Shown: positions 4,206 to 37,313 of the stretch, in pieces
How the letters are laid out: each line of letters opens with the position of its first letter
Position numbering within the stretch: the first letter of the stretch is position 1
Source of the DNA: Candidatus Micrarchaeota archaeon
GTDB lineage: Archaea > Micrarchaeota > Micrarchaeia > Anstonellales > Anstonellaceae
DNA length: 64,000 bases
Reading direction: 5' to 3'
Assembly (NCBI GenBank): GCA_021814005.1
Contig: JAKAJC010000002.1
Location: forward strand, 4,325 to 68,324
Notes under the pieces: generated by a model
What the model was told of the DNA's origin: nothing
What the model saw: the letters and a program-made list of their open reading frames with translations, nothing else
The model's database searches: none
Program-made: the position numbers and the translations under genes

Positions 4206-4826
4206 TCAGCGGACAAGGGGCTTTTTCGCCACCTTTCCTTCAGGCTTTTCCTCTGCAAATATTTCAGCGCCAAATGTCCAGATTTTCGCCGACGGGCTCT
4301 TCCACATGTCCCTTGGCAGACCCGCCTTTTCGCAGACAGCCTCTAAGAACTCTTGGGTGGTGAAATTCCACTCAAGCGCGACCTGCGGCAGCAGCAGGCC
4401 CGAGGCTCCGCCGTATTGTATGATGAGCCCGTCCTGCCCTATTTTTACCGCGGCCCGCCGTCCGGCCTCGTCTTTTGCCTTGATTGGCGCCGGCACCGTG
4501 AGCGCGCTCACCTCGAAAATAACAGAAGGCAGCTCCGCGCGCGTCATGGGCGCAAAGCGCGTGTCCTCCAAACCGGCCAGGCGCGCCGCCAGCTCAGTTG
4601 CCTCGTAAAGCCGATGGTCCGGGCGGATGAATCCGATGCAGCCGCGCAGCTCCTCTTTTGGATAAGTGTGAATAGTGACAAAAACCCCCCGCGGCTCCTC
4701 AAGCGAGGCCGGAATTTCGGGAGGGGGTTTTGCGATGCCGGCTTCCTGTACTCCAAGCGCTTTTGACAGCGAGCGGCGGGCCATTTTAACGAGCATGGCG
4801 CCTTCTTCGCTTTTGAGGGCAGGCAT
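4206..4826 (-). CDS. AMMECR1 domain protein
   Basis: It contains the RGCIGFI motif, which matches the AMMECR1 signature (GCIG). It is 206 aa, a typical archaeal size for this family. Confidence 0.8.
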   Translation of the reverse strand: MPALKSEEGAMLVKMARRSLSKALGVQEAGIAKPPPEIPASLEEPRGVFVTIHTYPKEELRGCIGFIRPDHRLYEATELAARLAGLEDTRFAPMTRAELPSVIFEVSALTVPAPIKAKDEAGRRAAVKIGQDGLIIQYGGASGLLLPQVALEWNFTTQEFLEAVCEKAGLPRDMWKSPSAKIWTFGAEIFAEEKPEGKVAKKPLVR

Positions 4827-11917: not shown

Positions 11918-13006
11918 TCAATTAATTTTTATTTTCCATTTTTTCTTGTCTTTGTCTATTTCTTCCATTCCCGTCTTTGGTTTAGCTCCGGCCAATAATT
12001 CAAGGCGCCGCGCTTCAAGAGGAACAAGATAGGTTTCCAGCTGCTGCGCCTCGGCCGATTTTGACACTATTTCTTTTTCGAGGCTCTCCAATGCAGACTG
12101 CTGTTTTTTCAGCCGGTGGCGCAGGCCTTTGAGCTGCGGCGGCTCGGAATCTTTGACTTCTTCCTTGTAATGCGCAAAGAAATATTCAACCGCCTGCGAG
12201 AAACTGGGGAATGGGCGGGCGGAGAAGCCTGATGCCGGATTTTCATATTCTGCCAAAGGCACGAGCGAGAGTTCGAAAACAACAAACTGTTTTGTGTTTT
12301 CATCAATTTTCTCATAAACGCGCGGTTGCGGGTTGATAATCATCTGTGCGAGGCTTTGTAGAAGTTTTTCCGCCTCCGCCTCGCTTACTTCACCGACTTT
12401 CTTTCCAGCCATCCCTGCCTGCATCAGCAATTCATCAGTATATCTCTTGCCAATCGGCCACTTGGACAAGAAGACTGGTAGCGTTGCAGCCGCCTTGTCT
12501 TTTGCCTGCTCTTTCCAGTCATCTATTGTAGGCGGGAAATTGAAAGAGGCAGACGGCGGGTATTCGTATTTTCCGCCCACCATAAATGTGTGTTTGCTGT
12601 CGGGCTTGAAATGATAAGGCCTGATGATTTTGTTGTTTTCATCCAAGAGGAACAGATTGCCGTTGACAAATTGCTCAATCAAGAGACGATGGCCCGAACC
12701 AAGCGTGATGATGTAAATTCTGTCGCTCTTGTACTGCTCAAACGAGGCCAGCCGCTTGCCTCCAGCATATTTTCTAATCGTCATTGCCATCGCGCTGGGG
12801 TTCATGGGCGCGGCAGGCGGGTCGCGCGTGAGGTAAAAGCACGTGCCAAGATGAATCATCAGAGACTCGTTGGTGGAGAAGTCAAGGCGGAAAATATCCG
12901 GCTTTATCTCGAAAACCTTGTCAAGGTGCTTGCCGGCCAAGTGCTGGCCTTCGCTCACCAACTGGCGGTATTCCCAATTAGAAAGCGTGCGGGCCATGTC
13001 AATCAA
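11918..13006 (-). CDS. NFACT-N domain protein (N-terminal half of an RqcH/NEMF/FbpA-like ribosome quality-control protein)
   Basis: It has the NFACT-N-like N-terminus (LSNWEYRQLVSEGQHLAGKHLDKVFEIKPDIFRLDFSTNESLMIHLGTCFYLTRDPP), then a helical region and a C-terminal coiled coil. At 362 aa it is about half of a normal archaeal NEMF homologue and lacks NFACT-R. Confidence 0.6.
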   Translation of the reverse strand: MIDMARTLSNWEYRQLVSEGQHLAGKHLDKVFEIKPDIFRLDFSTNESLMIHLGTCFYLTRDPPAAPMNPSAMAMTIRKYAGGKRLASFEQYKSDRIYIITLGSGHRLLIEQFVNGNLFLLDENNKIIRPYHFKPDSKHTFMVGGKYEYPPSASFNFPPTIDDWKEQAKDKAAATLPVFLSKWPIGKRYTDELLMQAGMAGKKVGEVSEAEAEKLLQSLAQMIINPQPRVYEKIDENTKQFVVFELSLVPLAEYENPASGFSARPFPSFSQAVEYFFAHYKEEVKDSEPPQLKGLRHRLKKQQSALESLEKEIVSKSAEAQQLETYLVPLEARRLELLAGAKPKTGMEEIDKDKKKWKIKIN

Positions 13007-13011
13007 TTAGA

Positions 13012-14811
13012 TTGCCACCCCCCAGCTTTTTATTCTCCCTCCTCTTTTTCCATGCGGCGATCAGTTTGGAACCCGGGCTTGTAATCGGACTATCAGTTGT
13101 CATAATTATGCTCTTCTCGCTCCTCATGGAGCGGGTCCGCCTACCCATGGTGCTGGGCGTTCTTCTGGCCGGAGTGATGATGGGCCCGGCAAGCCCGCTG
13201 CGGGGCCTGCAAATCGGGCCAATCGATTTGAACATTCTGGTGGTGAGCGAGCCGGCCACGGTGTCGTTCTTCGCGCTTTTGGGCTCGGTCCTCATCCTTT
13301 TTGGAATCGGCCTCGAATTCTCGGTCTTGAAACTGGTGCGCATGGGGTTCACCACATTTCTGGCCGCCCTCATCAAACTGGGGCTCACGTATGTGGCCGG
13401 CTATGTTATCGCGAATTTCATGGGCTTGGGCGGGCCTGGAGCCGTGCTCTTGGGCTTCATCCTTTCATTTTCCTCCACTCCAATCATCATCAAGATTCTC
13501 GAGGGCCATGACAAACTGCGCAGGCCCGAATCCACTTTCATTGTGGCCGTGCTTATCATCGAGGATTTGGTGGCCGTGGCCCTCTTGGGCATCATGGCCA
13601 GCACTGGCTTGGGCAACCAGTACGAAGTGGCGATGGCTCTTCTCAAAGTGGTTGTGGTCTTCGCCCTTGCCTACGCAATCCTCTCAGAAGTGATGAAGCG
13701 CCTGCTTGCATATGTGGACCGCTCGGACGAGCTGCTTGTGCTTTTCGTGGTCGGCGTGGTGCTGATGATAAGCTATCTGTGCGCGGCCATCGGCCTGGGC
13801 TTCTCGGTCGGCTCGTTTTTGGCCGGCTCGGTGGCGGCCGCAACCCCGCAGGCGCGGCGCATTGACGAGATGATTCGCCCCTTCAACGCGCTTTTCGCGT
13901 CATTCTTTTTCTTCTCCATTGGCATGATGGTGGACCCGGGCGCCGCGGCCGCCAGTCTGCCGCTGCTTTTCGGAATTCTTGTGGTGGCAGTGGTGGGCAA
14001 GCTCATCGCATCAGCCACCGCGGCCTATCTCATAGGCTTTTCCGGCACATCCGCCGCTTTTGCCGGCTCGGCCCTTCTGCCGCTGGGCGAACTTTCTCTG
14101 CTCATCGGCTCTTTTGCCGTAAGCCAGGGGCTGCTGCCTTCAGGCCTGATGGGCCTCTTGGGCCTTGTCATCATCATCACCTCCATCCTCTCGGTATTTC
14201 TCGTGGGCCGTGAGGGCGTTGTGTACCACATGGGCAAGGAGCTCACGCCTGAATTGGTGAGCCGCAACATGTCAATGCTGCGCTCCACCTCAATCGGCGT
14301 GCAGCGGGTGGTGGAGGAGAATTCGCGCTATGAGCGCATCATCCACCGCCTGCCCTCCATAGGCCGGCATCTGGCAGTGTCATCGCATGAGCGTCTCGAG
14401 CTCACGCTCAAGAACGCATTCCTGTTTCTGGTTTCAGCCGCAGCCCTTCTCCTCGCCCTCTGGCTCTTCGCTCCGGCCACTTCCACCCCGACCTCGCCAA
14501 CTTCCAGCACCTATGTGATGATTTTCCTCGGGTTTTTCATCACCGCAACGCTTGCCATGGTAAACGCCTCATCCACATTGCGCATCTACATCCGCATGCT
14601 GCGAAATTCGGGGCGCACGGCGCTGGAAATGACCATGCATCTGACCGGCGTGGTGTTTTTTGTGTTCATAGCCGCGGCCGCGGGAATGGCCTCAATCTTT
14701 TTGCACCAGCCGTCCATACTCATCCTGCTGTTGCCTGTGGTTATTCTTGGCGCCGTGCATGTCATTGCCATAGTCTCGCACATGCACAGGGCCGTGCGGC
14801 GCTTTTTCTAG
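13012..14811 (+). CDS. Cation:proton antiporter (CPA/Kef-type Na+/H+ or K+/H+ exchanger) with extra C-terminal TM segments
   Basis: About 12 TM helices with a CPA-family pattern (VLLAGVMMGP..., IILKILEG, IIEDLVAVALLGI). The start is uncertain; an ATG near 13111 is possible. The C-terminus carries additional TMs rather than a KTN domain. Confidence 0.65.
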   Translation: MPPPSFLFSLLFFHAAISLEPGLVIGLSVVIIMLFSLLMERVRLPMVLGVLLAGVMMGPASPLRGLQIGPIDLNILVVSEPATVSFFALLGSVLILFGIGLEFSVLKLVRMGFTTFLAALIKLGLTYVAGYVIANFMGLGGPGAVLLGFILSFSSTPIIIKILEGHDKLRRPESTFIVAVLIIEDLVAVALLGIMASTGLGNQYEVAMALLKVVVVFALAYAILSEVMKRLLAYVDRSDELLVLFVVGVVLMISYLCAAIGLGFSVGSFLAGSVAAATPQARRIDEMIRPFNALFASFFFFSIGMMVDPGAAAASLPLLFGILVVAVVGKLIASATAAYLIGFSGTSAAFAGSALLPLGELSLLIGSFAVSQGLLPSGLMGLLGLVIIITSILSVFLVGREGVVYHMGKELTPELVSRNMSMLRSTSIGVQRVVEENSRYERIIHRLPSIGRHLAVSSHERLELTLKNAFLFLVSAAALLLALWLFAPATSTPTSPTSSTYVMIFLGFFITATLAMVNASSTLRIYIRMLRNSGRTALEMTMHLTGVVFFVFIAAAAGMASIFLHQPSILILLLPVVILGAVHVIAIVSHMHRAVRRFF

Positions 14812-15026
14812 CCAAATCCCAAAGTGCGGGGTTTAAGTAGTCGGGCCGGTCCAATTCTATTATCCTAAAGCTAATAGCCGGTGTCCGCGTTCATCGCCTG
14901 CCACCTGTTTGCTCATCCTAAAAATAGTGAATGAGCGTGGCCGCGGAAAAACAATTGGCTCGTGCAATTTGCTTCCTTACACGAAGTACTCTCTGCCCGA
15001 AGACCCAAACTGTGAGAGTGAACAAG

Positions 15027-16724
15027 ATGAAATTCAACGAAATGGGCTTGTCCAAGCCTCTATTGGAATCGCTGGCAACAATGGGCTTTGCCACGCCTAC
15101 CCCTATTCAGGAACAGGCAATTCCCCTGCTGCTAAAAGGCCATGATTTACTCGGTCAGGCCCAGACCGGCACGGGCAAGACGGCCGCATTCGGCCTGCCT
15201 ATATTGGAGGCATGGCTGCGAAACAATTCGCATCACACTCACACCAGCGCCGATGGGCATTCCAGCGCCGGCCATAACCAGCCCGCTCAGCATTCCAATG
15301 CTCATCATCCAAGCGGCCCTCTTACCCAGCACACCAGCCGTTCGGGCGCGCAATACAATTCACGCGGCCCCCAAGCGCCTGCGCGCAATGGAATAGCAAC
15401 CCCGACCGCCCTGATTCTTGTTCCCACCCGCGAGCTGGCGGTGCAGGTGCACCAGTCGCTTCAAACCATGGCAGGCCGCACAGGCGCGCGCGTTGTGCCT
15501 GTTTATGGCGGACAGGAGATGCGAAAGCAATTGCGCGCCTTCCAATATCCTCTCGACATTCTGGTCGGCACTCCGGGCCGCACACTTGACCACATGCGCC
15601 AGGGCAGCCTGAATCTGGACAAAGTGCGCGTTGTGGTTCTTGACGAGGCGGACCGCATGCTTGACATGGGCTTTATCCGTGATGTAACCATGATTTTGGA
15701 AAGCACTCCGACGAGTCGGCAGACCATGCTCTTTTCGGCCACAATGCCGGGCGCAGTGTCCAACATGGCGCACAAATACATGAAGAGCCCGCACACTGTC
15801 AAAGTTTCGGACGAGCAGCTCACAGTGAAACTGACAAAGCAGCTTTATGTGCGCGCAAACGACGCCAACCGCTTCGGCATGCTGCTGGCCGCAATCCGCA
15901 CTCTCAAGCCATATCTTTCTGTGGTGTTTTGCCGCACAAAGCACGGGGCAAACAAACTCTGCCGCCAGCTTAACCAGCAGGGCATCAAAACCCAAGCCCT
16001 GCACGGGAATTTGCGGCAAAATGCGCGCGAGCGCACCATGGCCCAGTTCCGCGACGGAAAAATAGACGTGCTTGTGGCAACAGATTTGGCCAGCCGAGGT
16101 CTTGACGTTATCGGCATTTCGCATGTGTTCAACTATGACATGCCAGACGACCCCATGACTTATGTGCACCGCATCGGCCGCACCGGCCGCGCCGGAGCCG
16201 AAGGGGTTGCTGTTTCATTCATCTTGGGCAATCCGTATCGCCCTGTTGAAATAATTCAGGATGCAACAGGCTCGAAAATGGAAGAGCTTGCGCTTACGGC
16301 TGACGTGGTTTCCATGAGCCCTGTCGAAGTCAGTGAATTTGAGGGCGAGGAAGATGAGGGCTATTCGAGCCGGGAGAGACATCCGAGTCATGCCCGCACT
16401 TTTGGAGGCAACCGCCATTCGGGCCGGGAACGCAGTTTTGGAGGCAACCGCCATTCAGATTCAAGCCGCAATTTCGGTTCGGAGCGCCATTCTGATTCGG
16501 ATAGACATCCTTCCGCCCGGCACCATGAAGGCGGCGAGGAATATTCTGGCGGCAGTCGGCATTATTCCGGCCATCGCCGCGAAGAAGGCTCGTCCCAATA
16601 CGAACGCGGCCCGTCCCGTCACGGCGGCCACCGCGGCGGACGTTCAGACAACCATCCTTCCCGCAACAGGGGTCCCCGCCCGCCTCCGGGCGCGCATCAT
16701 CATTCGAGCCATCGGCGCTATTGA
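15027..16724 (+). CDS. DEAD-box ATP-dependent RNA helicase with a His/Gln/Ser-rich insertion and an Arg/Ser/Gly/His-rich repetitive C-terminal tail
   Basis: Motifs are Q (FATPTPIQ), I (AQTGTGKT), DEAD (VLDEADRMLDMGF), SAT and HRIGRTGRAG. The start is MKFNEM at 15027; the tool's 14931 start adds an unlikely leader. The tail at about 16400..16507 has a 36-bp tandem periodicity (FGGNRHSGRERS / FGGNRHSDSSRN / FGSERHSDSDRH). Confidence 0.9.
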   Translation: MKFNEMGLSKPLLESLATMGFATPTPIQEQAIPLLLKGHDLLGQAQTGTGKTAAFGLPILEAWLRNNSHHTHTSADGHSSAGHNQPAQHSNAHHPSGPLTQHTSRSGAQYNSRGPQAPARNGIATPTALILVPTRELAVQVHQSLQTMAGRTGARVVPVYGGQEMRKQLRAFQYPLDILVGTPGRTLDHMRQGSLNLDKVRVVVLDEADRMLDMGFIRDVTMILESTPTSRQTMLFSATMPGAVSNMAHKYMKSPHTVKVSDEQLTVKLTKQLYVRANDANRFGMLLAAIRTLKPYLSVVFCRTKHGANKLCRQLNQQGIKTQALHGNLRQNARERTMAQFRDGKIDVLVATDLASRGLDVIGISHVFNYDMPDDPMTYVHRIGRTGRAGAEGVAVSFILGNPYRPVEIIQDATGSKMEELALTADVVSMSPVEVSEFEGEEDEGYSSRERHPSHARTFGGNRHSGRERSFGGNRHSDSSRNFGSERHSDSDRHPSARHHEGGEEYSGGSRHYSGHRREEGSSQYERGPSRHGGHRGGRSDNHPSRNRGPRPPPGAHHHSSHRRY

Positions 16725-16779: not shown

Positions 16780-18411
16780 GTGGATGCCACTATCTCCCAG
16801 TCTCCAGTTCTCTCACCTCTTCTCTCACCCTTAGCTCCGCCTCCGCGTCTCTACCAATCATCCATTTCCGATGCCGTGCTAAAAAACGGCTCCACTCTTG
16901 TGGTGCTGCCCACTGGCCTTGGAAAAACTCTGGTTGCAATTCTGGTGGCGGCAGCCAAACTGAACGAGGGCGGCCGCGTGCTTTTTCTTGCACCCACCCG
17001 CCCTTTGGCAGCGCAGCACGAGAAAGTGTGCCGTGAATGGCTCAAACTCGCGCATGATGAAATCATTTCAGTCTCCGGCCTCATATCAGCCGAAAAAAGA
17101 AAGCCGCTTTATTTGTCACCTGTCCGCCTCGTCATCTCCACCCCGCAAACCATTGCCAACGACCTTGAAGCCGGCCGCCTCACATTTGATTTCTCTCTTG
17201 TTATTTTCGACGAATGCCACCGCTCGGTTGGAAGATATGCCTACACATTTGTCGCAACTGCAGCCAAAAAGCACGGCTCTCTTGTGCTCGGCCTCACCGC
17301 CTCTCCGGGCGGTGACAGAAAGAAAATAACCGACATCCTCAACGCATTGGGCATTACACATGTACAAATCCGCACCTCGGAAGATGCGGACGTTGCGCCC
17401 TATGTCAAGCCGCTTGAAATCGAGTGGATTAGGGTGGAATTGACGCCCGCTTTGCTCGAAGCAAAAGAAGTGCTTGGCGAGCTTATCCGCGCCCAGACAG
17501 AAACTTTGCGCAAAATGGGTTTTGTGGGCCAGTTTACATCGAAAAAGGCGCTTTCTGAAATGCGCATGAGAATTCTTGCATCCGGCTCGCATCTGCGCTT
17601 CTCGGCTCTCTCGCATCACGCAACACTTTTCTCTCTTGTGCATGTGCAGGAGCTATTGGAAACACAGGGCGTGGAATCTGTGCAGCGCTTTGTGCAAAGG
17701 GTGAAAGAGCGCGAGCCGAGCAAAGCTCAGGTGCGCTTGCTGCATAATGCAAAATTCATGGCAATGGTGGAGAAATTGAATGGAGCAACCGAGCATCCAA
17801 AGCTCAAAAAACTGGTTGAATTGGTCAAAGGCAGGCCTCAAGGCGAGAAATCCATAGTCTTCTGCCAATACCGCGACCAGGTCGGCGTGCTGGTAAGAGA
17901 ATTGGAAAAGGCAGGCCTGCGCGCAAAATCATTTATGGGCAAAAAAGAGGGCGTGACAGCCAAAGACCAGCAGAAAACACTTGCAGATTTCAGGGAGGGC
18001 CTGTTTGATATTCTCGTGGCCACTTCCATCGGCGAAGAGGGGCTGGACATTCCATCTGTTGACAATGTCATCTTCTATGAGCCTGTTGCGTCAGAAATCA
18101 GGCACATTCAGCGCCGCGGGCGCGCGGGCAGGGCGAAACTTGGCAGAATGTTCGGCCTGATGACTGCCAACACGCGCGACCAGGCCTTCTTCTGGTCATC
18201 GCGGAGGAAAGAGGAGAAGATGAAGAAAATAGTCGGCGGCCTTGCGCTTGCATCTCCTTCTGATTTCAAATCGGTGCTCAATGCAAGGGGAAGACCAAAG
18301 AAAATAGTGCCGGATTTGCCAAAAGAAACTAAAAACGAAAAAACAGAATCCCCCTCGCCTGTTATTTCCGCTCCAAAAAAGAAGGGGCAGAGCAAGATTT
18401 CCGATTTCTAA
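16780..18411 (+). CDS. Hef/FANCM-like superfamily-2 helicase (helicase domains only; no ERCC4 nuclease domain)
   Basis: Motifs are TLVVLPTGLGKT (I), VIFDECHRSVG (II, DECH), LGLTASPGG (III), and C-terminal helicase domain VATSIGEEGLDI...QRRGRAGR. It ends in a Lys-rich tail at 543 aa, with no nuclease or HhH2 region. Confidence 0.7.
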   Translation: MDATISQSPVLSPLLSPLAPPPRLYQSSISDAVLKNGSTLVVLPTGLGKTLVAILVAAAKLNEGGRVLFLAPTRPLAAQHEKVCREWLKLAHDEIISVSGLISAEKRKPLYLSPVRLVISTPQTIANDLEAGRLTFDFSLVIFDECHRSVGRYAYTFVATAAKKHGSLVLGLTASPGGDRKKITDILNALGITHVQIRTSEDADVAPYVKPLEIEWIRVELTPALLEAKEVLGELIRAQTETLRKMGFVGQFTSKKALSEMRMRILASGSHLRFSALSHHATLFSLVHVQELLETQGVESVQRFVQRVKEREPSKAQVRLLHNAKFMAMVEKLNGATEHPKLKKLVELVKGRPQGEKSIVFCQYRDQVGVLVRELEKAGLRAKSFMGKKEGVTAKDQQKTLADFREGLFDILVATSIGEEGLDIPSVDNVIFYEPVASEIRHIQRRGRAGRAKLGRMFGLMTANTRDQAFFWSSRRKEEKMKKIVGGLALASPSDFKSVLNARGRPKKIVPDLPKETKNEKTESPSPVISAPKKKGQSKISDF

Positions 18412-27600: not shown

Positions 27601-28017
27601 TTATCTTGTTTTTTGTGAAATCGTTTTTCTCAGGCCTTCCAATCCCAGAAGCGCGCATCTCATCCTTGTGGGGCCGGGGTCGATTCCCAAATCTGCAAGC
27701 ACCTGTTTCTTGTCTATTTTTGCGGCCTGCGCAAGAGTCATTCCAATCAGCCTGTCCGAGAGCATGGAAGCCGAAGCTGTTGAAATGGCGCAGCCGGAGC
27801 CGAAAAGGCCGACAGCCTGTATGCGGCCGTCGTGGCCGAGTTTTATGTCAATTCCTATCTCGTCGCCGCACACTGGATTTGATTCCGAGTGCGACAGGTC
27901 TGCTTTCGGCAGGCGGCCCCAGTGGTGGGGCTTTTTGTAATGCTCCAAAATGTTTGCGCGGTAAAGCTGTTCGCGGACCGAAGACAATGGGGAAGGGGAA
28001 GAGGCCATGTCAATCAC
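27601..28017 (-). CDS. sufU: SufU/IscU-type Fe-S cluster assembly scaffold / sulfur acceptor
   Basis: NPVCGDEIGI, GSGCAISTASASMLS and MRCALLGL correspond to the three conserved Cys regions of U-type scaffolds. It overlaps sufS by 4 nt. Confidence 0.8.
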   Translation of the reverse strand: MIDMASSPSPLSSVREQLYRANILEHYKKPHHWGRLPKADLSHSESNPVCGDEIGIDIKLGHDGRIQAVGLFGSGCAISTASASMLSDRLIGMTLAQAAKIDKKQVLADLGIDPGPTRMRCALLGLEGLRKTISQKTR

Positions 28018-29246
28018 ACTGAAAATATCTTTTTCACTTCACGGAGGCCTTCTTCCAATGCAGTAATGTCATCCATGTCATTGTACAAATAGAAAGAAGC
28101 GCGCGCAGTGGAAACAACATTCAGCTGGCGCATGAGCGGCTGGGCGCAATGATGCCCAGCGCGCACTTCCACCCCGTGGCGGTCAAGAATGGTGCCGACA
28201 TCGTGCGCATGCAGGCCGTTCACATTGAACGAGATGACTCCTACGCGGCCGCGCTCGCTCGGAAGTCCGTAAACCTCAATGCCGTCAATTCCATGCAGCA
28301 TGTCAAGCGTTTTTTTGACAAGTTTTTTTTCATGCGCATGAATTTTGTCAATTCCAATTTTGCGGATGTAGCGCATGGCCTCGGCCAAACCGACCGCAGC
28401 CGCAACATCGGGCGTGCCTGCCTCGAATTTGGCCGGACCGTCTGCCCAAGTGGATGCGGTGTCGTCCACGCGGCCAATCTGCCCCCCTCCAGTCATAAAG
28501 GGCGGCAGGCGTTCCATCAATCCATCCGCCATGTAAAGCACGCCAACTCCGGTCGGCCCCAGCATCTTATGGCCCGAAAAGGCGAGAAAATCGCAATTCA
28601 TTTTTCTCACGTCAATTTTCATGTGCGGCGCAGACTGGGCGGCATCCACAACCACCGGGCATTTCCAGTTCTCGTGCGCGAAGCGGGCCATTTCTTCAAC
28701 ATCATTTATTGTGCCCAGCACGTTGGAGGCATGCGCGATTGTGAGCAGTGATGGAGTAATTTGCGAATTTATTTTTTCAAGATTTTTGGCTGTGATTGGT
28801 TTTGTCACATCGAACGGGACAAATGCGAGCTTTCGCCCAGTTCTTGCGCTCATCTGCTGCCACGGCACAAAATTCGAGTGGTGCTCCATTTTTGAAAGAA
28901 GAATTGGGCCGTGCGAAATTTCGGCGGGCAGAACATAGGACAAAAGGTTGATGCTTTCTGTCGTGTTGCAGGTGAAAACAATTTCGTTTGGTTTTGCCCC
29001 AATAAAGCGGGCCGTCTCTTCTCTTGCCTTCTCATATTCTTCGCCAGCCTCGGCGGTAAGGGTGTGCACTCCACGCCCCGGATTTCCATTGTGCCGCTTG
29101 TAATAATCTGACATGGCGTCAAGAACGCACTGCGGCTTCTGGCTGGTGGCTGCATTGTCCAAATAGACAAGGCGGCGGCTGTTCACCTTGCGCGAGAAAA
29201 TGGGAAATTCTTTTCGTGCGGATTTTCCAAGAGCCATCTCAATCAC
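28014..29246 (-). CDS. sufS: Cysteine desulfurase SufS (class V aminotransferase)
   Basis: MEHHSNFVPWQ, PLP-lysine SGHKMLGPTGVGVLY and C-terminal RAGHHCAQPLM (active-site Cys). It sits in the suf operon. Confidence 0.9.
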   Translation of the reverse strand: MIEMALGKSARKEFPIFSRKVNSRRLVYLDNAATSQKPQCVLDAMSDYYKRHNGNPGRGVHTLTAEAGEEYEKAREETARFIGAKPNEIVFTCNTTESINLLSYVLPAEISHGPILLSKMEHHSNFVPWQQMSARTGRKLAFVPFDVTKPITAKNLEKINSQITPSLLTIAHASNVLGTINDVEEMARFAHENWKCPVVVDAAQSAPHMKIDVRKMNCDFLAFSGHKMLGPTGVGVLYMADGLMERLPPFMTGGGQIGRVDDTASTWADGPAKFEAGTPDVAAAVGLAEAMRYIRKIGIDKIHAHEKKLVKKTLDMLHGIDGIEVYGLPSERGRVGVISFNVNGLHAHDVGTILDRHGVEVRAGHHCAQPLMRQLNVVSTARASFYLYNDMDDITALEEGLREVKKIFSV

Positions 29247-29249
29247 GTC

Positions 29250-30584
29250 TCACTCGTCCGCTATCTGTATAAGGCCTGTGTGCGCGCTCGGCCGGGCCTC
29301 AAGGCCCGGAACGGCCAGAGGGCGCGTCTTTGTGCGGCGTGAGGGACGGCGGGCGCCGGCCGTTTTCTTTTCTTTTTTGCCTCTTTTTTCCTCCATTTTC
29401 GGCAGCCGTGTGCCGACAAGGCCGGAAAGATAGCGGCGGCTGCTCTCGCCCCAAATCTTTCCTATCAGCTCGTCGAAATAGCCGCGCAGAATAAGCAGCC
29501 GCGCGTCCTGCTCATCAAGCCCGCGCGAGCGGAGGTAATTCACTTCAGCCTCATCCAGCGCGCCCACGCTTGCCCCGTGCCCAGCCTCCACCTGGTCGTT
29601 GTCCACCTGCAGCGAGGGGATGATGTTGGCCGCAGAATCGGGCGAGAGAAGCAAAGCAGAGCCTGACTGGTGGCTGATGGTGTTCGGCGCAGCGCGTTCT
29701 ATGTGAATGCGACCGCGGTAAACCATGCTGGCTGTTCCGTCAAGCGCGCCGCGGCATGTCATCTCGCCAGACGTGTCGGCGGTCATATGGTGGGAATGTG
29801 TTTCCATGTCCATAAATTGCGAGCCGCGGCCGAAAAACAGCTGGTATGCGTTTGCCTTCGCCCTGCCGCCGCTCAATTGGTTAAGCGTGCGGGTGCGGCT
29901 CACTCCCGCGCCGAAAGCTCCGGCCACGTGCGTAAGCTCTGCGAATTTGCCGAGAATATGGCCGTGATAGCCGAATGCCCAGTCATTTTCGCCATAGCGC
30001 TGAATGGTGGTGAAGCAGAGCTTTGCATCAGCCCCCAGAATCGCTTCACTTACGTCGGTGTGAAGACGGGCGGGAGTATTGGCAGACTGCGGGAGCCGGG
30101 CGGGGGAATTTTCTTCATTCTTTTTTTCTTCCCCGCCAATCATTTCCAATATCACTTCAGCAGTTGCGCCATCTTCCAAAATTATTGTGTGATGCAGGGC
30201 CGAATGGCCGGCCGCAACCGAGCGCAGGTAGATGAGGGGGGCGCTCACGCCGGCCGCCACGCGGATGACAAATCCGTCCTGCGCGTGCGCGCCGTGCCAT
30301 GCCATAAGCTTGTCCTGCTTTGGCGAGGGCTCAAGGCCGGGAGATGAGAGAAGTTTGCTGCCGATTGTCTCGCCCTCATTTTCATCCATTTGCGAGAGCC
30401 GCTCGATGCGTACGCCTTTTGTCATGGATTTGAGGCGGAATTCCAGCTGCGCCGCGCCGATTCCCTCCTTCTCTGCCCGTGCAAAATCGAATTTTGTAAA
30501 GTCCTGATATTCGCCGTCAGCCCAATTGAGATTGGACCAATCTGCGTAGCGGGCGTGGATGGAATTGAGAAATTCTTTTGCCAT
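29250..30584 (-). CDS. sufD: Fe-S cluster assembly protein SufD
   Basis: The SufB/SufD-family C-terminal beta-helix region is present (…RGRIHIERAAPNTISHQSGSALLLSPDS...). It lies between sufB and sufS. Confidence 0.8.
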   Translation of the reverse strand: MAKEFLNSIHARYADWSNLNWADGEYQDFTKFDFARAEKEGIGAAQLEFRLKSMTKGVRIERLSQMDENEGETIGSKLLSSPGLEPSPKQDKLMAWHGAHAQDGFVIRVAAGVSAPLIYLRSVAAGHSALHHTIILEDGATAEVILEMIGGEEKKNEENSPARLPQSANTPARLHTDVSEAILGADAKLCFTTIQRYGENDWAFGYHGHILGKFAELTHVAGAFGAGVSRTRTLNQLSGGRAKANAYQLFFGRGSQFMDMETHSHHMTADTSGEMTCRGALDGTASMVYRGRIHIERAAPNTISHQSGSALLLSPDSAANIIPSLQVDNDQVEAGHGASVGALDEAEVNYLRSRGLDEQDARLLILRGYFDELIGKIWGESSRRYLSGLVGTRLPKMEEKRGKKEKKTAGARRPSRRTKTRPLAVPGLEARPSAHTGLIQIADE

Positions 30585-32093
30585 TTAGAGCCCCTCAATT
30601 TCCATCTCAATGAGACGGTTGATTTCGACCGCATATTCAAGCGGCAGCTGCTTTACCACCGGCTCGATAAATCCGGCGATGATGAGGCGCGTTGCCTCCT
30701 CTTCCGATATGCCGCGCGAGCGCAAATATGTCCGCTGCTCGGCCGAGATGCGGCCCACCGTTGCCTCGTGCCCCACCTTGACGTCGTTTTCCTCTATTTC
30801 CATGCGCGGCACTGTGTCGGAGCCGGAAAGTCCGTCAAGAATAAGGCCGTCGCAGCGCACATGCACGCTCGAGCCATGGCAGCCCTTCTTCATTTTGACA
30901 AGCCCTCTGTAGCGGGCAATGCCTCCGCCGTGTGAAATCGACTTTGAAATGACTGATGAGTGTGTATTTGGTGCAAGATGAATGACTTTTGCCCCCGTAT
31001 CCTTGACCTGCCCCTCGCCAGCCAATGCAATTGTGAGATGGTCGGCACGCGCGCCCTCGCCGGCCAGCACCGAGCATGGGTAGAGCATGGTGGTGCCGCT
31101 GCCCAGCGTGCCGCCCACCCATTCCATAATCGCGCCGGCATCAACAATCGCGCGCTTGGTGTTGAGGTTGTAAACATTTTTTGACCAGTTCTGCACCGAA
31201 GTGTAGCGCACGCGGCTGTTTTTTTTCGCAAAAATTTCAACCACTGCCGAATGCAGGCTTGCCGTGTCGTAGTGCGGGGCAGTGCAGCCCTCAATGTACT
31301 GGACCGAGCTGTTTTCTTCTGCAATTATGAGCGTGTGTTCGAACTGGCCGTATTCAGGATAATTCATGATGAAATAAATCTGAAGCGGCCGCTCAATCTT
31401 CACGCCTTTTGGCACATAAAGAAACGAGCCGCCAGACCACACTGCGCCGTGCAGGGCCGAAAACTTGTTGTCGCCAGCAGGCACGCACTTTGTCATGAAA
31501 TATGGCTTTACCAGCTCGGGATATTCGGCCACGCCCTGGTCCATGCCCATGAAAATTACTCCCTGCTCCTCCAAATTCTTCTGAATCGAATGGTAAAGCA
31601 CCTCGGAATCATATTGCGCCGCCACTCCGCCCAAAATGTCGCGCTCTGCCTGCGGAATTCCAAGCCGCTCGTAGGTCTGCTTGATGTAATCCGGCACTTC
31701 GTTCCAGCTTTTGGCGTTTTTGCGCCCCTCCGGCTTGACATATTCTGTTATGTCGTCAAGATTGAGGCCCGAGAGGTCGGGGCCCCATGTCGGAATGGGC
31801 TTTGTCTGGAAAATGCGGTAAGACATCAGCCGCTTTGCCAGCATCCAGTCAGGCTCGCCCTTGCTTGACGAAATCTCGCGGACAACGTGCTCGCTCAAGC
31901 CCTTTTCATCGACCTTGAAAGAGAATTTCGGCGGATTGCGAATGGTCTCGTGGTAGTTCTCCAGATTCGCCACTATGGACTGCACCTGCGCCTCGTGGCC
32001 CCAGGGCAGTTGGGGTGAAGAAGAATCCGAATCAGCGCCACTTTTTTTTGTTTTTGTTTTTGGCGCTGGTTTTGGCGAAAGAGATTTGGCCAT
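30585..32093 (-). CDS. sufB: Fe-S cluster assembly protein SufB
   Basis: Strong SufB conservation throughout (…KGLDDLRVPLIEK-like core, GTHSSVISKSISHGGG, C-terminal EIEGL). The start is chosen at MAKSLSPKP (ATG 32093, preceded by GAAGAG) rather than 32156, which would overlap sufC by 59 nt. Confidence 0.85.
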   Translation of the reverse strand: MAKSLSPKPAPKTKTKKSGADSDSSSPQLPWGHEAQVQSIVANLENYHETIRNPPKFSFKVDEKGLSEHVVREISSSKGEPDWMLAKRLMSYRIFQTKPIPTWGPDLSGLNLDDITEYVKPEGRKNAKSWNEVPDYIKQTYERLGIPQAERDILGGVAAQYDSEVLYHSIQKNLEEQGVIFMGMDQGVAEYPELVKPYFMTKCVPAGDNKFSALHGAVWSGGSFLYVPKGVKIERPLQIYFIMNYPEYGQFEHTLIIAEENSSVQYIEGCTAPHYDTASLHSAVVEIFAKKNSRVRYTSVQNWSKNVYNLNTKRAIVDAGAIMEWVGGTLGSGTTMLYPCSVLAGEGARADHLTIALAGEGQVKDTGAKVIHLAPNTHSSVISKSISHGGGIARYRGLVKMKKGCHGSSVHVRCDGLILDGLSGSDTVPRMEIEENDVKVGHEATVGRISAEQRTYLRSRGISEEEATRLIIAGFIEPVVKQLPLEYAVEINRLIEMEIEGL

Positions 32094-32097
32094 CTCT

Positions 32098-32886
32098 TCA
32101 CCTCTTCTCTCCCGCGCCGGCTTCGCTCTCAGCATCGGAGCCGAGCAGGCCCGCATAGCCCTCTCTTTCTATCCGCGCCGCGACTTCTGGCCCGCCAGAC
32201 TTGACCAGCTTTCCCCGATGCAGCACATGCACATAATCGGGCTTGAGGTGCTGGAGAATGCGGGCATAATGCGTTATGACAAGCACTCCGAGTTTGCGCT
32301 CTGTGCGCAGGCGCGACACCCCATCGGCAAGAATCTTGAGCGCATCAACGTCAAGGCCGGAGTCAAGCTCGTCAAGAAGAACATATTTCGGCTGCAAAAG
32401 CGCCATCTGCAGCACTTCAAACCGCTTGCGCTCCCCGCCCGAGAAACCGTCGTTGAGATAGCGCTCAAGAAAAGATTCGTCCATGCGCAGGCGCGCCATT
32501 TCCGCCTTGACCAGTTTCTCGAAATCTGGAATCGTGATGGATGGGGCGGGCGCATGCGCCGCATTGTAGATTGTGCGCAGGTAATTGGCAACATTCACGC
32601 CGGGCACTGCCGGCGGATTCTGATAGGCGAGAAAGAGGCCGGCGCGGCTGCGCTCGTCTATGTCAAGCGGCAATATGTCGCGGCCGTCAAGCAGAACCTT
32701 GCCCTGAGTTTTGAAATTCGGGTCTCCGGCCATGGCATAGCACAGCGTGCTTTTGCCCGAGCCGTTGGGGCCCATCAATGCGTGTATTTCCCCCGGCTTT
32801 ATCTGCAAATCAAGGCCTTTCACAATCTGCTTGCCGCTGATTGACACGCGCAAATCCTGAATGAGAAGCGAAGGTGCTGACGTCAT
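32098..32886 (-). CDS. sufC: Fe-S cluster assembly ATPase SufC
   Basis: Walker A GPNGSGKST, ABC signature LNDGFSGGERKR, Walker B LLDELDSGLD and the H-loop. Confidence 0.9.
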   Translation of the reverse strand: MTSAPSLLIQDLRVSISGKQIVKGLDLQIKPGEIHALMGPNGSGKSTLCYAMAGDPNFKTQGKVLLDGRDILPLDIDERSRAGLFLAYQNPPAVPGVNVANYLRTIYNAAHAPAPSITIPDFEKLVKAEMARLRMDESFLERYLNDGFSGGERKRFEVLQMALLQPKYVLLDELDSGLDVDALKILADGVSRLRTERKLGVLVITHYARILQHLKPDYVHVLHRGKLVKSGGPEVAARIEREGYAGLLGSDAESEAGAGEKR

Positions 32887-32939: not shown

Positions 32940-33515
32940 CTACTTCCGCCTCTCCAGTCTGCCGTGGCCGGGGCAGAGGATTTTCCACTCCACCCCCTCA
33001 AGCAATTGCAGGCTTTCCTCCATCCGCTCCTCCGCGCCCAGCCCGCCCAAATCCGTTCTTCCGTATCCGCCGTCCGCGAATTTGGTGTCCCCAGAGAAAA
33101 GAAAGCCGCTCTTCTCCTCGAAAAGGCACATGCTTCCCGGAGTGTGGCCCGGCGTGTGGATGATGTTGAAATGAAAAGGGCCGAAATCAAAATGCTGGCC
33201 GACAAGCGGTTTGGAATTTTTCGGAATGTTCATGAACGGCAGAGAAGAATCTTCGGCCGGGTGAATCCATACCTCTTTCCAGTCCGGCTTCACGCCTCTC
33301 GTGTGGTCAAAATGGCCGTGCGTAAGAAAGACCGAGTCGGGCGTGAAATCCAGCTCGTCCTTGCCATCTCCAGAGTCAATCATCATTGTCCTGTTTTTCT
33401 TCTCGTCCACGGCCAAATAGCGGGTGGAGCATGTGCGGTTTTCAACCTCGTAAAATAAGATGCCCTTGACGCCTTTGTCTATGGGCCTGAAATCGGAAAT
33501 GGAAATCTTTTTCAT
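32940..33515 (-). CDS. MBL-fold metallo-hydrolase (glyoxalase II-like)
   Basis: It has HGHFDHTRG (HxHxDH) and HTPGHTPGS. The start is MKKISISDF at 33515, and its ATG overlaps the stop of the upstream NFACT-R gene in ATGA. The tool's longer 263-aa version adds an Arg/Ala/Gly-rich junk N-terminus. Confidence 0.7.
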   Translation of the reverse strand: MKKISISDFRPIDKGVKGILFYEVENRTCSTRYLAVDEKKNRTMMIDSGDGKDELDFTPDSVFLTHGHFDHTRGVKPDWKEVWIHPAEDSSLPFMNIPKNSKPLVGQHFDFGPFHFNIIHTPGHTPGSMCLFEEKSGFLFSGDTKFADGGYGRTDLGGLGAEERMEESLQLLEGVEWKILCPGHGRLERRK

Positions 33516-34300
33516 TGAATCACGAATTTTCCGCCCGGCAGAAGCGGCGCGACTTCTTCCACACTGGCGCCCAAGCGGGCCGAGAGAATTTTGGCTGCTT
33601 CCTCTTTCGGCATTGGGCCAGGCGCGAGCGATGCAGCCTGTTCCAATTCCTGCGGATGGATTGCGGGCAGCATGGCGAGCTGTCCGTCCAGATTTCCTAT
33701 TCTCAATTTCAGCGGCATCTGGCGGAACCATTCCCTCTCTCCAGTCAGAACAAAACTGCCAGGGCCAACATAGCCGCCGCCGTCATGCTTGCTCACTTGC
33801 GTGGGGGGCACGGCAAACACGTCAACGGCCGAGGCGCCCACTTTCCATGCCGAAGAATAGGCGCCAGCCCACTGCGCGGCCTCCCTTTTTTCCTCTTCGC
33901 TTGCTTTTTGCCCGTCCTTCAAAATGACTGTGGGCGCGCCCTGAATGTCTGCATGGAAAAACAGGTCTGCGGGAGAGAGGTGCTTGGCATACAATTCGTC
34001 GTTCTGCTTGGCATTTCTGCCCGCCACCACGCGCCGCCCGCCCGAGCCGACGAATGTGAGATAGGGCTCGTACCAGTAGGTTTTCTTTTTCGGCTGTTTT
34101 GATTTCGATGAAGATGATTTTGTTTTTTCTTTTGTTTTTTCCCCTGTTTTTTCTTTTTTCTCAGCCTCGCCAATCTCTTTTTTCGTCTGCTCCATCGCCG
34201 TGAGCAGGCCGGCCTTCTTTTCTTTAAGCTTGCGCAATTCGGCGTATTTGTCCGACAGATTCTGGCGCGCGCTTTTGCGCGCATCAAGCTCGATGTCCAT
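33512..34300 (-). CDS. NFACT-R (DUF814) domain protein with N-terminal coiled coil (C-terminal half of an RqcH/NEMF-like protein)
   Basis: The N-terminal Lys/Glu-rich coiled coil is followed by YWYEPYLTFVGSGGRRVVAGRNAKQNDELYAKHLSPADLFFHADIQGAPTVIL, the NFACT-R/DUF814 core. Confidence 0.65.
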   Translation of the reverse strand: MDIELDARKSARQNLSDKYAELRKLKEKKAGLLTAMEQTKKEIGEAEKKEKTGEKTKEKTKSSSSKSKQPKKKTYWYEPYLTFVGSGGRRVVAGRNAKQNDELYAKHLSPADLFFHADIQGAPTVILKDGQKASEEEKREAAQWAGAYSSAWKVGASAVDVFAVPPTQVSKHDGGGYVGPGSFVLTGEREWFRQMPLKLRIGNLDGQLAMLPAIHPQELEQAASLAPGPMPKEEAAKILSARLGASVEEVAPLLPGGKFVIQ

Positions 34301-37309: not shown

Positions 37310-37313
37310 TTTT

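Follow-up and report, generated by a model that had tools for sequence, protein, structure and literature searches.

Can an RqcH/NEMF (NFACT) homologue be carried by two separate genes and, if so, do the two products still act as one protein? This question is raised by a 64-kb stretch of Micrarchaeota DNA (the window, by which this whole stretch is meant), where the first-pass annotation proposed that the homologue is split over two genes about 20 kb apart and left two readings, a two-piece NEMF or halves diverged to separate functions. The split was confirmed, with a distance of 20.5 kb, and the evidence favours, short of proof, the two-piece reading, according to which the two genes probably encode two subunits of one RqcH.

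Two genes with complementary parts of RqcH

The features of both genes, designated here as N-half and C-half, are collected in Table 1. For the N-half the initial proposal of a 362-aa gene held with respect to the open reading frame and the minus strand and was corrected in size and start: the ATG located three codons past the TTG (MARTLSNWEY...) is the start in 13 of 13 close homologues and in the identical database protein P0001, so the gene is likely the 359-aa form.

Table 1. Coordinates of the split rqcH genes, their structural parts and adjacent elements in the window (fused numbering refers to the directly concatenated halves).
Feature	Position	Strand	Details and evidence
N-half ORF, longest form	11918..13006	-	opens at TTG 13006; 362 aa; stop TGA 11918-11920
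rqcH N-half gene	11918..12997	-	359 aa; NFACT-N, HhH, coiled-coil helix 1, first M domain strands; Pfam NFACT_N, RqcH_arch; identical to P0001
NFACT-N beta-rich head, aa 1-130	12608..12997	-	AF2 secondary structure, conserved motifs
Helical HhH region and adjoining small domain, aa 158-276	12170..12526	-	AF2 secondary structure
Coiled-coil helix 1, aa 287-335	11993..12139	-	AF2 H287-322 and H324-335, pLDDT 93-97
M domain, N-terminal part, strands aa 345-348 and 353-358, end '...KKKWKIKIN'	11921..11965	-	AF2, alignment
TATA-like box AATAAAAAG	13026..13034	-	29-37 nt upstream of N-half ATG; consensus resemblance only
rqcH C-half gene	33512..34300	-	262 aa; last M-domain strand, coiled-coil helix 2, NFACT-R, archaeal C-terminal domain; NFACT-R_1, RqcH_arch; identical to P0015
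M-domain strand MDIELD, first six residues	34283..34300	-	AF2 strand fused 360-365, pLDDT ~96
Coiled-coil helix 2, C-half aa 11-52	34145..34270	-	AF2 helix fused 370-411; weak NFACT_N-tail match
Lys/Ser-rich linker, C-half aa 53-79	34064..34144	-	low AF2 pLDDT
NFACT-R (DUF814), C-half aa 81-186	33743..34060	-	'GRNAKQNDEL' and 'DLFFHADIQGAP'; Pfam, invariant columns
C-terminal domain, C-half aa 190-262	33515..33733	-	RqcH_arch to 644/645; AF2 elements fused 549-620
TATA-like box ATTATAA	34324..34330	-	24-30 nt upstream of C-half ATG; consensus resemblance only
Glyoxalase-II-like MBL-fold hydrolase gene, 191 aa	32940..33515	-	ATG overlaps C-half stop (ATGA)

The proposed identity of this product as an NFACT-N-like head with a helical region was borne out by Pfam, profile and AF2 evidence, the helical part comprising a helix-hairpin-helix (HhH) region and the first coiled-coil helix. 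Of the two halves, only the N-half exceeded the Pfam gathering score of 31 bits for NFACT_N (PF05833), with 101.6 bits and E=5.7e-29 over positions 12-336 of the 456-position profile. In the NFACT-N head D92 and R93 of the DR motif ('SDRIY') as well as E108...G113-N114 ('IEQFVNGN') are invariant in both alignments made, and the split N-half profile places 'DRI' on DRI and 'ElFgkGN' on 'EIMGRHSN' of B. subtilis RqcH (7AQC/7AS8), in which the DR motif as well as the glutamate of the EIM region are known from published work to bind tRNA. The HhH regions of uS13 and Fpg were also matched by the N-half profile in the PDB.

Likewise, the ORF, Pfam and AF2 data agree with the earlier description of the second gene as a 262-aa minus-strand gene carrying the coiled coil and NFACT-R/DUF814. 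The gathering score of NFACT-R_1 (PF05670), 29.8 bits, was exceeded in the C-half only (89.9 bits, E=2.1e-25). This protein has no NFACT-N of its own; its residues 1-56 match weakly the tail of the NFACT_N profile (positions 369-424 of 456). Its NFACT-R aligns to NEMF residues 472-644, and D471..F473..H475-A476-D477 ('DLFFHAD') is invariant and conforms to the D-x-aromatic-x-H motif, with F as the aromatic residue in contrast to W in B. subtilis 'DWH'. The linker between helix 2 and NFACT-R, with block-mean pLDDT of 57 and 49 (fused 411-430) and values below 50 at fused 418-427, is probably disordered. The C-terminal domain corresponds to the end of archaeal RqcH. Of the three Pfam families proposed at first pass for the search, NFACT_N and NFACT-R_1 were thus above their cutoffs; NFACT-C was not detected at E<=1 in either half, although RqcH_arch matched through its last positions.

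The RqcH_arch profile (NCBIfam NF041120, 'ribosome rescue protein RqcH', 645 positions) is matched by the N-half over positions 6-346 (E=3e-40, 138.6 bits) and by the C-half over positions 380-644 (E=9e-67, 226.2 bits), the coverage being complementary and non-overlapping. Jointly the halves span positions 6-644 with the DR and NFACT-R motifs kept, and their sum of 359 + 262 = 621 aa compares with 607-705 aa for intact proteins. The equivalog cutoff of 400 bits is reached neither by the N-half or C-half nor by their sum (138.6 + 226.2 = 364.8). Six-frame hmmsearch of the window found each half as a single copy and no remnant of the missing part beside either gene. The NFACT core domains, therefore, do not lie on a single polypeptide, although the one-chain NFACT architecture has been described as resistant to change (PMC4075521); the two dispersed ORFs make up one ancestral protein without overlap or missing core, as in split genes of DPANN type.

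The gap between the halves comprises 20,515 bp with genes on both strands, and the order on the coding strand is inverted, the C-half lying upstream of the N-half. Because of this order neither frameshift nor insertion can explain the split, and a sequencing frameshift joining the halves, considered at first pass, is excluded both by the order and by the distance. As proposed at first pass, the halves are located in different transcription units. The N-half is situated between a Na+/H+ exchanger gene and a convergent histone gene, which ends 13 nt beyond the N-half stop; upstream of the C-half there is a 104-bp spacer and then a divergent deoxyhypusine synthase gene. The two TATA-like boxes may be regarded as putative separate promoters of the N-half and of the C-half. 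As the halves lack a common transcript and differ in their conserved neighbours, nothing in the arrangement itself ensures that they are expressed in balance.

Because the ATG of the MBL hydrolase gene overlaps the C-half stop codon, this gene is a probable operon partner of the C-half, and its homologue was found directly downstream of the C-half in 33 of 76 Micrarchaeota loci; a functional link between the two may exist. A PIN_9 gene is often near the C-half as well. The AMMECR1 linkage belongs to the published archaeal NFACT neighbourhood; in this study AMMECR1 next to an NFACT gene was found only in the window's clade and beside one intact gene, and this linkage was ruled out as a general feature.

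Distribution of the split among archaea

The C-half was a stand-alone ORF in all 76 Micrarchaeota species-representative loci retrieved by a genome scan with patterns from the C-half only, 73 of these C-halves beginning at profile position 1-3, and no N-half was present in the 1.07 Mb flanking the 76 loci. An intact single ORF of 637-716 aa was found in four loci belonging to Thermoproteota, Thermoprotei, Nezhaarchaeales, and Heimdallarchaeota. An exhaustive profile search gave, among its best 150 matches, about 120 clusters of N-halves (50% identity; 320-402 aa) and 28 intact proteins (607-705 aa). The latter agree in size with the single chain of about 600-700 aa presumed at first pass to be normal for archaeal NEMF homologues. 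All 116 close relatives of the C-half and all 14 close relatives of the N-half are half-length. The named intact proteins closest to the N-half profile come from Methanosarcinales, Archaeoglobi, Syntropharchaeia, Methanohalobium, and Pyrohabitans, and none of them is from DPANN. The comparison with related archaeal genomes that had been called for thus gives a split throughout Micrarchaeota and intact nearest homologues in Euryarchaeota, Thermoproteota, and Asgard; with intact orthologues in the four non-Micrarchaeota loci and in the named Euryarchaeota as outgroups, the split is the derived state.

In the neighbour-joining analysis the split C-halves were separated as one group from 36 intact C-parts in 34 of 40 bootstraps, and because of this grouping a single fission in Micrarchaeota is supported. 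The N-part neighbour-joining tree was poorly resolved, its between-clade distances being saturated (1.8-2.2), and does not serve as a basis for N-half monophyly; 11 isolated short sequences scattered among the intact ones in this tree may be truncated gene calls. The 'Candidatus ainarchaeum' titles, scattered within Micrarchaeota clades, were treated as label noise, and P0118, in which a C-half is apparently fused to ribosomal protein S2, was left out because its 2-kb contig looks chimeric.

Co-occurrence of the two genes, which the first-pass annotation had proposed to check, was found in each of the three assemblies that were paired, all from the window's clade. In GCA_027348425.1 (the window's pair) the halves are on one contig 20.5 kb apart, in GCA_041643055.1 they are on one contig 18.7 kb apart in the same relative order as in the window, and in GCA_027348265.1 they are on two contigs. 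Another clade, S5, consists of stand-alone N-halves labelled as Woesearchaeota by NCBI submitters and ending at the same site; GCA_013202845.1 is one of its assemblies. A metagenome scan found no C-half in the 0.8 Mb flanking 80 S5 N-half loci. These N-halves could mark a second, independent fission, in which case the M-domain loop would be a structural hot spot for splitting.

Break point and alternative explanations

Every N-half stops and every C-half starts in the small M domain that caps the coiled coil at its distal end, and the break separates two neighbouring beta-strands. When aligned with the 28 intact proteins, the N-halves mostly terminate in columns ~465-485 and the C-halves mostly begin in ~470-480, the break falling between the M domain strands 'k.v.iEl' and '.eieLD' in all five N-half clades, which stop directly after the last N-half strand. 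Each half contains a long helix, and the helices are of matching length (49 and 42 residues), the first of them corresponding in the alignment to CC1 of intact RqcH proteins. The AF2 model of the directly concatenated halves had a mean pLDDT of 94.2, with 93-97 over both helices and the junction strands; being a covalent fusion modelled with an alignment that includes intact homologues, it tests compatibility and not association of the halves. In this model a coiled-coil/M-domain element (H287-335, strands 345-365, H370-411) is predicted to be built from two polypeptides, where the MDIELD strand, aligned to '.eieLD' of intact RqcH, pairs with the last N-half strand. The concatenated model possesses the RqcH/NEMF domain layout and matches NEMF (E=2e-33), Rqc2, and B. 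subtilis RqcH along its length: the whole-length Foldseek E values against 7AS8, 7AQC, 8S1U, 9GY4, and 8AAF range from 2e-33 to 8e-21, with low global TM-scores against those five structures (0.35-0.41), as expected for a flexible multi-domain protein.

In the window's clade the N-half has lost the helical insert of the M domain, and the C-half has 'qNL..kY..LrkLKeKK' in place of the otherwise conserved 'ENA..yY..aKe'; both sides of the predicted interface are thus remodelled in this clade. Purifying selection on both halves is indicated by the diversity of the N-half clusters together with the invariant motifs of the N-half and of the C-half.

Other explanations of the two genes can be considered. 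An unlikely one is that the halves took separate functions after the fission, where the C-half alone would be a ribosome- or RNA-binding NFACT-R protein like CCDC25/Jlp2, possibly acting with its MBL-hydrolase neighbour, and the N-half alone would be a tRNA- or RNA-binding factor. The different transcription units with different conserved neighbours, the coupling of the C-half to the MBL hydrolase (33 of 76 loci) and its frequent proximity to PIN_9, and the lack of a located partner for the S5 N-halves are in agreement with such divergence. Moreover, solo NFACT-R proteins with a short coiled coil are known in eukaryotes (PMC4075521), and the NFACT-R part of the model matches CCDC25 structures (Foldseek E ~4e-5), the C-half resembling CCDC25/Jlp2 as a stand-alone NFACT-R with a coiled-coil segment. 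However, CCDC25/Jlp2 arose by partial duplication beside an intact NEMF and has its coiled coil C-terminal to NFACT-R (PMC4075521), whereas the coiled coil of the C-half is N-terminal and homologous to RqcH helix 2, and the protein also carries the C-terminal domain of archaeal RqcH. Neither the window nor the 76 species-representative loci retrieved from Micrarchaeota yielded an intact paralogue, so within this range the C-half does not fit the CCDC25/Jlp2 family. Separate functions are further opposed by the full-length coiled-coil arms and M-domain strands kept in both halves, which have no obvious use in a monomer, by the invariant break point, by the alteration of both interface sides in one clade, and by the retained tRNA-binding and NFACT-R motifs of canonical RqcH.

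It is very improbable that the genes represent partial paralogues of a complete rqcH located elsewhere in the genome, outside the 64-kb window. The window is indeed a part of a metagenome-assembled genome, where the contig has 252,767 bp, but none of the 76 Micrarchaeota species-representative loci contains an intact gene, the 116 close C-half and 14 close N-half relatives are all half-length, and the taxon-named intact proteins closest to the N-half profile are not from DPANN.

An artefact or decaying gene (frameshift, misassembly, or pseudogenisation) is hardly credible: misassembly is a general risk in metagenome-assembled genomes, for which no specific support was found in this case, but the same split architecture recurs in independent assemblies from many studies and habitats, identical proteins are present on six database contigs, the C-half precedes the N-half with 20.5 kb and genes on both strands between them, the ORFs are clean, with a Met start aligned to profile position 1 and TATA-like boxes upstream, and the halves are deeply conserved, the survey of 76 Micrarchaeota loci refuting this reading for practical purposes. 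A split intein is employed by some of the split Nanoarchaeum equitans genes, but post-translational or transcript-level joining of the RqcH halves by split intein or RNA trans-splicing is just as negligible in probability, since there is no extra junction sequence in a total of 621 aa equal to the size of intact homologues (607-705 aa), the ends lie exactly on homologous RqcH strands with no room for intein fragments of ~100 + ~35 aa, and Pfam found no intein domain in either half.

A probable two-subunit RqcH and its significance

Because the same cut is found throughout Micrarchaeota, RqcH most likely works there as two assembled pieces. According to this two-subunit reading, an ancestral single-chain archaeal RqcH would have been cut in the M domain loop at the far tip of the coiled-coil hairpin, and its two parts would now be at separate loci under separate promoters. 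The N-subunit would consist of NFACT-N, HhH, and coiled-coil helix 1, and the C-subunit of coiled-coil helix 2, NFACT-R, and the C-terminal domain; they may assemble non-covalently, the long helices zippering in antiparallel fashion and the two parts completing a shared small beta-sheet. Such a heterodimer would act on obstructed 50S subunits like canonical RqcH/NEMF, where the C-subunit and the coiled-coil tip would provide anchoring to the ribosome and the N-subunit would hold the tRNA with which the stalled nascent chain is tailed at its C-terminus without a template. Thus, a physical association of the subunits, their binding to the ribosome, and a tailing activity are suggested for the two-piece RqcH, the latter two by the conservation of domains and motifs; no demonstration of RqcH function in any archaeon was found in the literature searched.

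The B. subtilis RqcH contacts the ribosome only via NFACT-R (A-site finger) and the distal coiled coil/M domain (uL11/H44) (bioRxiv 10.1101/2020.09.03.281279); since these contacts are all in NFACT-R and the coiled-coil tip, the N-subunit would need the C-subunit for its positioning. In single-chain RqcH/NEMF the tip touches uL11/H44 and the sarcin-ricin loop, and the covalent hairpin opens like scissors (bioRxiv 10.1101/2020.09.03.281279), the scissor hinge being the very site of the break in Micrarchaeota RqcH. A bolder and rather doubtful version is that the fission made RqcH a true two-component machine with a trans-acting N-subunit. The C-subunit would then stay on the obstructed 50S subunit as a platform, the MBL hydrolase, often co-transcribed with it, could act on ester-linked peptidyl-tRNA, and the N-subunit would cycle on and off, delivering tRNA and docking via coiled-coil zippering, so that its cycling would replace the intramolecular "scissor" movement of the single-chain protein.

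Compared to the single-chain archaeal RqcH of ~610-700 aa, the split RqcH has the same domains in the same order (NFACT-N, HhH, coiled-coil helix 1, M domain, helix 2, NFACT-R, C-terminal domain) and differs in its two genes 20 kb apart, their inverted order, the cut inside the M domain and, in the window's clade, a shorter M domain. B. subtilis RqcH, human NEMF, and yeast Rqc2 are single chains as well, whereas in Micrarchaeota there are two. Split genes described in the passages of the DPANN literature consulted include reverse gyrase and alanyl-tRNA synthetase of Nanoarchaeum equitans, Micrarchaeota genes, and Dph1/2 (PMC6349945). As in those cases an information-processing protein is encoded by two dispersed ORFs in a reduced genome with the break between structural units; the RqcH split, however, is fixed over the whole phylum and not confined to a few highly reduced genomes. 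RqcH is absent from the split genes named in the keyword-retrieved passages of DPANN papers, neither the text nor the supplements of an archaeal fusion/fission survey list NFACT, DUF814, or RqcH, and no prior report of a split RqcH was found in the literature searched. The split RqcH is a further case of DPANN gene splitting and a new one for RqcH.

In terms of ribosome quality control the split amounts to a protein-complementation experiment set up by nature, where a whole phylum is without the covalent link at the coiled-coil tip. As the covalent tip, one of the two bacterial ribosome contacts and the scissor hinge, is dispensed with, tRNA handling and ribosome anchoring in trans become directly testable. 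For genome annotation, pipelines call the halves "NFACT family protein" and "DUF814 / NFACT RNA-binding domain protein", and since both are below the RqcH equivalog cutoff, comparative studies could wrongly score Micrarchaeota as RqcH-less. The fission at one exact site, which is fixed in each of the 76 Micrarchaeota species sampled, represents a rare genomic change usable as a clade marker, and the same cut in Woesearchaeota-labelled genomes, either shared or convergent, bears on DPANN relationships. Finally, the conserved association of the C-half and MBL hydrolase genes offers a lead for an unknown step of archaeal ribosome quality control.

The two complementary gene pieces

By profile comparison the N-half (NFACT-N side) and the C-half (second coiled-coil helix and NFACT-R, or DUF814) complement each other as parts of a single RqcH and do not overlap. 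In Pfam, NFACT_N was matched by the N-half alone, over profile positions 12-336 of 456 (E=5.7e-29; 101.6 bits, cutoff 31), and NFACT-R_1 by the C-half alone (E=2.1e-25; 89.9 bits, cutoff 29.8), while on the 645 positions of the NCBIfam archaeal RqcH model the N-half covered 6-346 and the C-half 380-644; the 400-bit equivalog cutoff of that family was reached by neither half nor by their sum. The domain assignments of the first-pass annotation are thereby borne out, including the 262-aa NFACT-R piece, and a full NFACT-N within the DUF814 protein is absent, the only trace being a weak match of its residues 1-56 towards the end of the NFACT_N profile (369-424). The proposed coordinates and strand of the N-half ORF also held, its length of 362 aa probably not: this longest ORF opens with TTG, and because the identical database protein P0001 and 13 of 13 close homologues start three codons downstream, at MARTLSNWEY, the gene most likely begins at 12997.

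The genes lie 20,515 bp apart, close to the 20 kb first estimated, with intervening genes on both strands. Since the C-half precedes the N-half along the coding strand across this gap, neither a frameshift nor an insertion interrupting a formerly continuous gene can account for the split. In six-frame searches of the whole window with the profile of each half, each turned up exactly once, and beside neither gene was there a remnant of the missing part. In both genes a TATA-like box, recognized by consensus resemblance only, is located about 30 nt upstream of the ATG.

Features of the window and elements of the AlphaFold2 model
Feature	Position	Strand	Remark
AMMECR1 gene	4206..4826	-	7 kb from N-half, same strand; syntenic in L001 and L006
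N-half	11918..12997 (longest ORF 11918..13006)	-	359 aa; start revised
Na+/H+ exchanger, longest ORF	13012..14811	+	599 aa; TTG start
Two adjacent DEAD/Helicase_C genes	14931..16724, 16780..18411	+	one with ResIII and RNA_helicase_helical matches
Four same-strand genes after C-half and MBL pair	28014..32886	-	nearest (32098..32886) SufC-like by eye
Glyoxalase-II-like MBL-fold hydrolase	32940..33515	-	191 aa; ATGA overlap with C-half stop codon
C-half	33512..34300	-	262 aa; identical to database protein P0015
PIN_9 domain protein	37188..37712	+	upstream of C-half, opposite strand
Model of concatenated halves (residues)	helix 287-335; strands 345-348, 353-358; junction 359/360; strand 360-365; helix 370-411		

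Distribution and origin of the split

Close relatives of the N-half are all 329-373 aa long (14 of 14), those of the C-half (n=116) 155-358 aa, mostly about 240-300 aa; named relatives of both are labelled Micrarchaeota, Micrarchaeia, Anstonellales and, for a few, Marsarchaeota, and the public database entries of both halves carry generic names. In P0118 (358 aa, on a 2,089-bp ENA contig) a C-half seems fused to the C-terminal part of a ribosomal protein S2 of bacterial type; this was rejected as most likely a chimeric short contig. Among the best 150 representatives of the exhaustive N-half profile search the lengths were bimodal, with about 120 at 320-402 aa and 28 at 607-705 aa, and the taxon-named intact proteins nearest to the profile came from Methanosarcinales, Archaeoglobi, Syntropharchaeia, Methanohalobium and Pyrohabitans.

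In the species scan each GTDB species was represented by a single genome; the query was fused, only patterns from its C-half were used, and 80 loci were kept. In 76 of them, titled Micrarchaeota or a subgroup, the match was confined to query residues of about 355-621, while in the other four (Thermoproteota, Thermoprotei, Nezhaarchaeales and Heimdallarchaeota) it ran unbroken from residue 1, 3 or 24 to 598-621. According to six-frame profile searches the C-half is a stand-alone ORF in all 76 Micrarchaeota loci, starting at profile position 1-3 in 73, and no N-half was found in 1.07 Mb of their flanks; the four outgroup loci hold both parts in a single ORF of 637-716 aa. The single chain of about 600-700 aa that was first expected of archaeal homologues is seen in these four loci and in the intact homologues of 607-705 aa; the 76 Micrarchaeota loci depart from it.

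In a neighbour-joining tree of C-parts one bipartition separated 77 split from 36 intact sequences (34 of 40 bootstraps), and Micrarchaeota-labelled proteins were present in each of the N-half clades S1-S4. The conclusion drawn is one ancient fission event that became fixed in Micrarchaeota (NCBI phylum Microcaldota). Three genomes titled 'Candidatus ainarchaeum sp.' (L045, L050, L079) had no match in the NCBI taxonomy copy searched, and because they scatter inside different Micrarchaeota clades of the C-half tree this label is probably unreliable.

A fifth clade of stand-alone N-halves (S5; L088-L091, L097-L176), about 370 aa long, ends at the same M-domain strand, and both of its two named members were labelled Woesearchaeota by submitters. 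The N-half was a separate ORF in 80 of 80 metagenomic loci, with no C-half within 10 kb in any of them. Mean distances put S5 nearer to intact N-parts (1.64) than to Micrarchaeota N-halves (1.95-2.24); the clade may therefore stem from another fission that hit this loop independently, or else may be a branch of the original event that evolved more slowly.

Split protein genes are described as a recognised feature of DPANN archaea, Micrarchaeota included, in two studies (PMC6349945; PMC8407392), and the NFACT core architecture as resistant to change (PMC4075521). No literature combining NFACT with Micrarchaeota was found; the text and supplements of a 2024 survey of archaeal fusion and fission families hold no NFACT, DUF814 or RqcH entries, and no mention of split NFACT/RqcH was found in a 2025 comparative study of the phylum.

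Genomic surroundings of the halves

Both halves were paired in three assemblies, all of the window's clade: on one contig in the window, 18.7 kb apart on JBGGHI010000015.1 of GCA_041643055.1 (P0131 and P0025, same strand and order as in the window), and on two contigs of GCA_027348265.1 (P0007 and P0023). Local synteny is kept around each: the neighbours of the N-half are the divergent exchanger gene and a histone gene in convergent orientation, those of the C-half a divergent deoxyhypusine synthase gene and the downstream MBL hydrolase gene. The longest exchanger ORF would leave just 14 nt before the N-half ATG; database gene calls of 567 aa place its start near 13108, which leaves about 110 bp, including the N-half TATA-like box, between the two divergent genes. 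Synteny of the DEAD/Helicase_C pair with the N-half is seen in L001 and L006, and L092 shows one gene only, cut by the locus end.

In 33 of 76 Micrarchaeota species loci (L008-L063) the C-half is directly followed, in the same orientation, by an MBL hydrolase homologue; it is found in 11 of 11 window-clade loci besides the window and in a second large clade, not in a third, and probably shares an operon with the C-half. One ABC_tran and two SUFBD genes were observed downstream of the C-half in L093, which suggests a Suf cluster there in the position of the window's four-gene run. This run in the window may belong to a long co-oriented gene block. In the P0120 lineage of Micrarchaeia (533-kb contig; L002/L003 10001-13515) a topoisomerase I gene overlaps with its end the start of the C-half, and 60 nt beyond the C-half lies a gene for a Cdc48-type AAA ATPase; in eukaryotes Cdc48 belongs to the RQC complex.

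A PIN_9 gene on the opposite strand, 0.1-3 kb upstream of the C-half, was seen in 14 species-representative and three paired-assembly loci (L009-L015, L018, L033, L042, L046, L051, L052, L063, L093, L094, L096), resembling the published archaeal neighbourhood of NFACT, PIN-fold Mut7-C and AMMECR1. This recurring neighbour suggests that the C-half remained at the ancestral locus. The intact RqcH gene of a Nezhaarchaeales genome (locus L068) has an AMMECR1 gene at a distance of 2 kb, and none was seen near N-halves of other clades than the window's.

Position of the cut and the proposed two-piece protein

When 119 N-halves and 109 C-halves were added as fragments to an alignment of 28 intact homologues (607-705 aa), N-halves mostly ended at columns of about 465-485 and C-halves mostly started at about 470-480. 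Intact proteins read '...kId.k.G.v.veL.g--.eieLD..ks..eNAq.yYe.aKk.k.K' in this region; N-halves terminate past the 'v.veL' strand, at the same point in five of five clades, and C-halves open with 'M.ieLD.rKs..eNA'. An AlphaFold2 model of the directly concatenated halves (mean pLDDT 94.2, pTM 0.64), which indicates compatibility and not association because a covalent fusion and alignment with intact homologues were used, continues after the second long helix into a low-confidence Lys/Ser-rich linker, NFACT-R and a C-terminal domain. Foldseek matched it over its whole length to human NEMF (2e-33), yeast Rqc2 and B. subtilis RqcH. Alignment columns, model and structural matches together place the break at the far end of the coiled-coil hairpin, within a loop of the small M domain. 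B. subtilis RqcH contacts the ribosome at just two sites, of which this tip makes one, to uL11/H44 at the stalk base, and its coiled coil opens scissor-like during the cycle (bioRxiv 10.1101/2020.09.03.281279).

Across very divergent sets the N-half positions D92-R93 and E108/G113/N114 and the C-half motifs 'DLFFHAD' and 'AKQND' are invariant; the split N-half profile aligns DR to DR of B. subtilis RqcH and 'ElFgkGN' to its EIM region. In the window's clade S1 the M domain is shortened on the N-half side, and in the matching C-half clade the helix 2 start 'ENA..yY..aKe' is changed to 'qNL..kY..LrkLKeKK', while the remaining split C-halves retain the motif of intact proteins. Qualitatively, such matching changes on both sides of the predicted interface are as expected of co-evolving partners.

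A two-subunit RqcH is the best-supported reading and is considered fairly probable. Its main rival, functional divergence of the halves, appears rather doubtful: in its favour are the separate regulation of the two genes, the difference in their surroundings and the existence of solo NFACT-R proteins, known in eukaryotes only (PMC4075521), and it is opposed by the retention of coiled-coil arms and junction strands in both, the model keeping a long helix in each (49 and 42 residues) plus the M-domain strands. Given the invariant motifs and the recurrence of the split, an artefact or a pseudogene is unlikely, as are an intact RqcH paralogue elsewhere in the genome, none of the 76 Micrarchaeota species loci being intact, and, with both termini falling at the M-domain loop, a split intein joining the halves post-translationally. 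As a two-subunit RqcH, the halves would re-associate by antiparallel helices and a shared beta-sheet, and the assembled protein would act as canonical RqcH/NEMF in ribosome binding and tailing.
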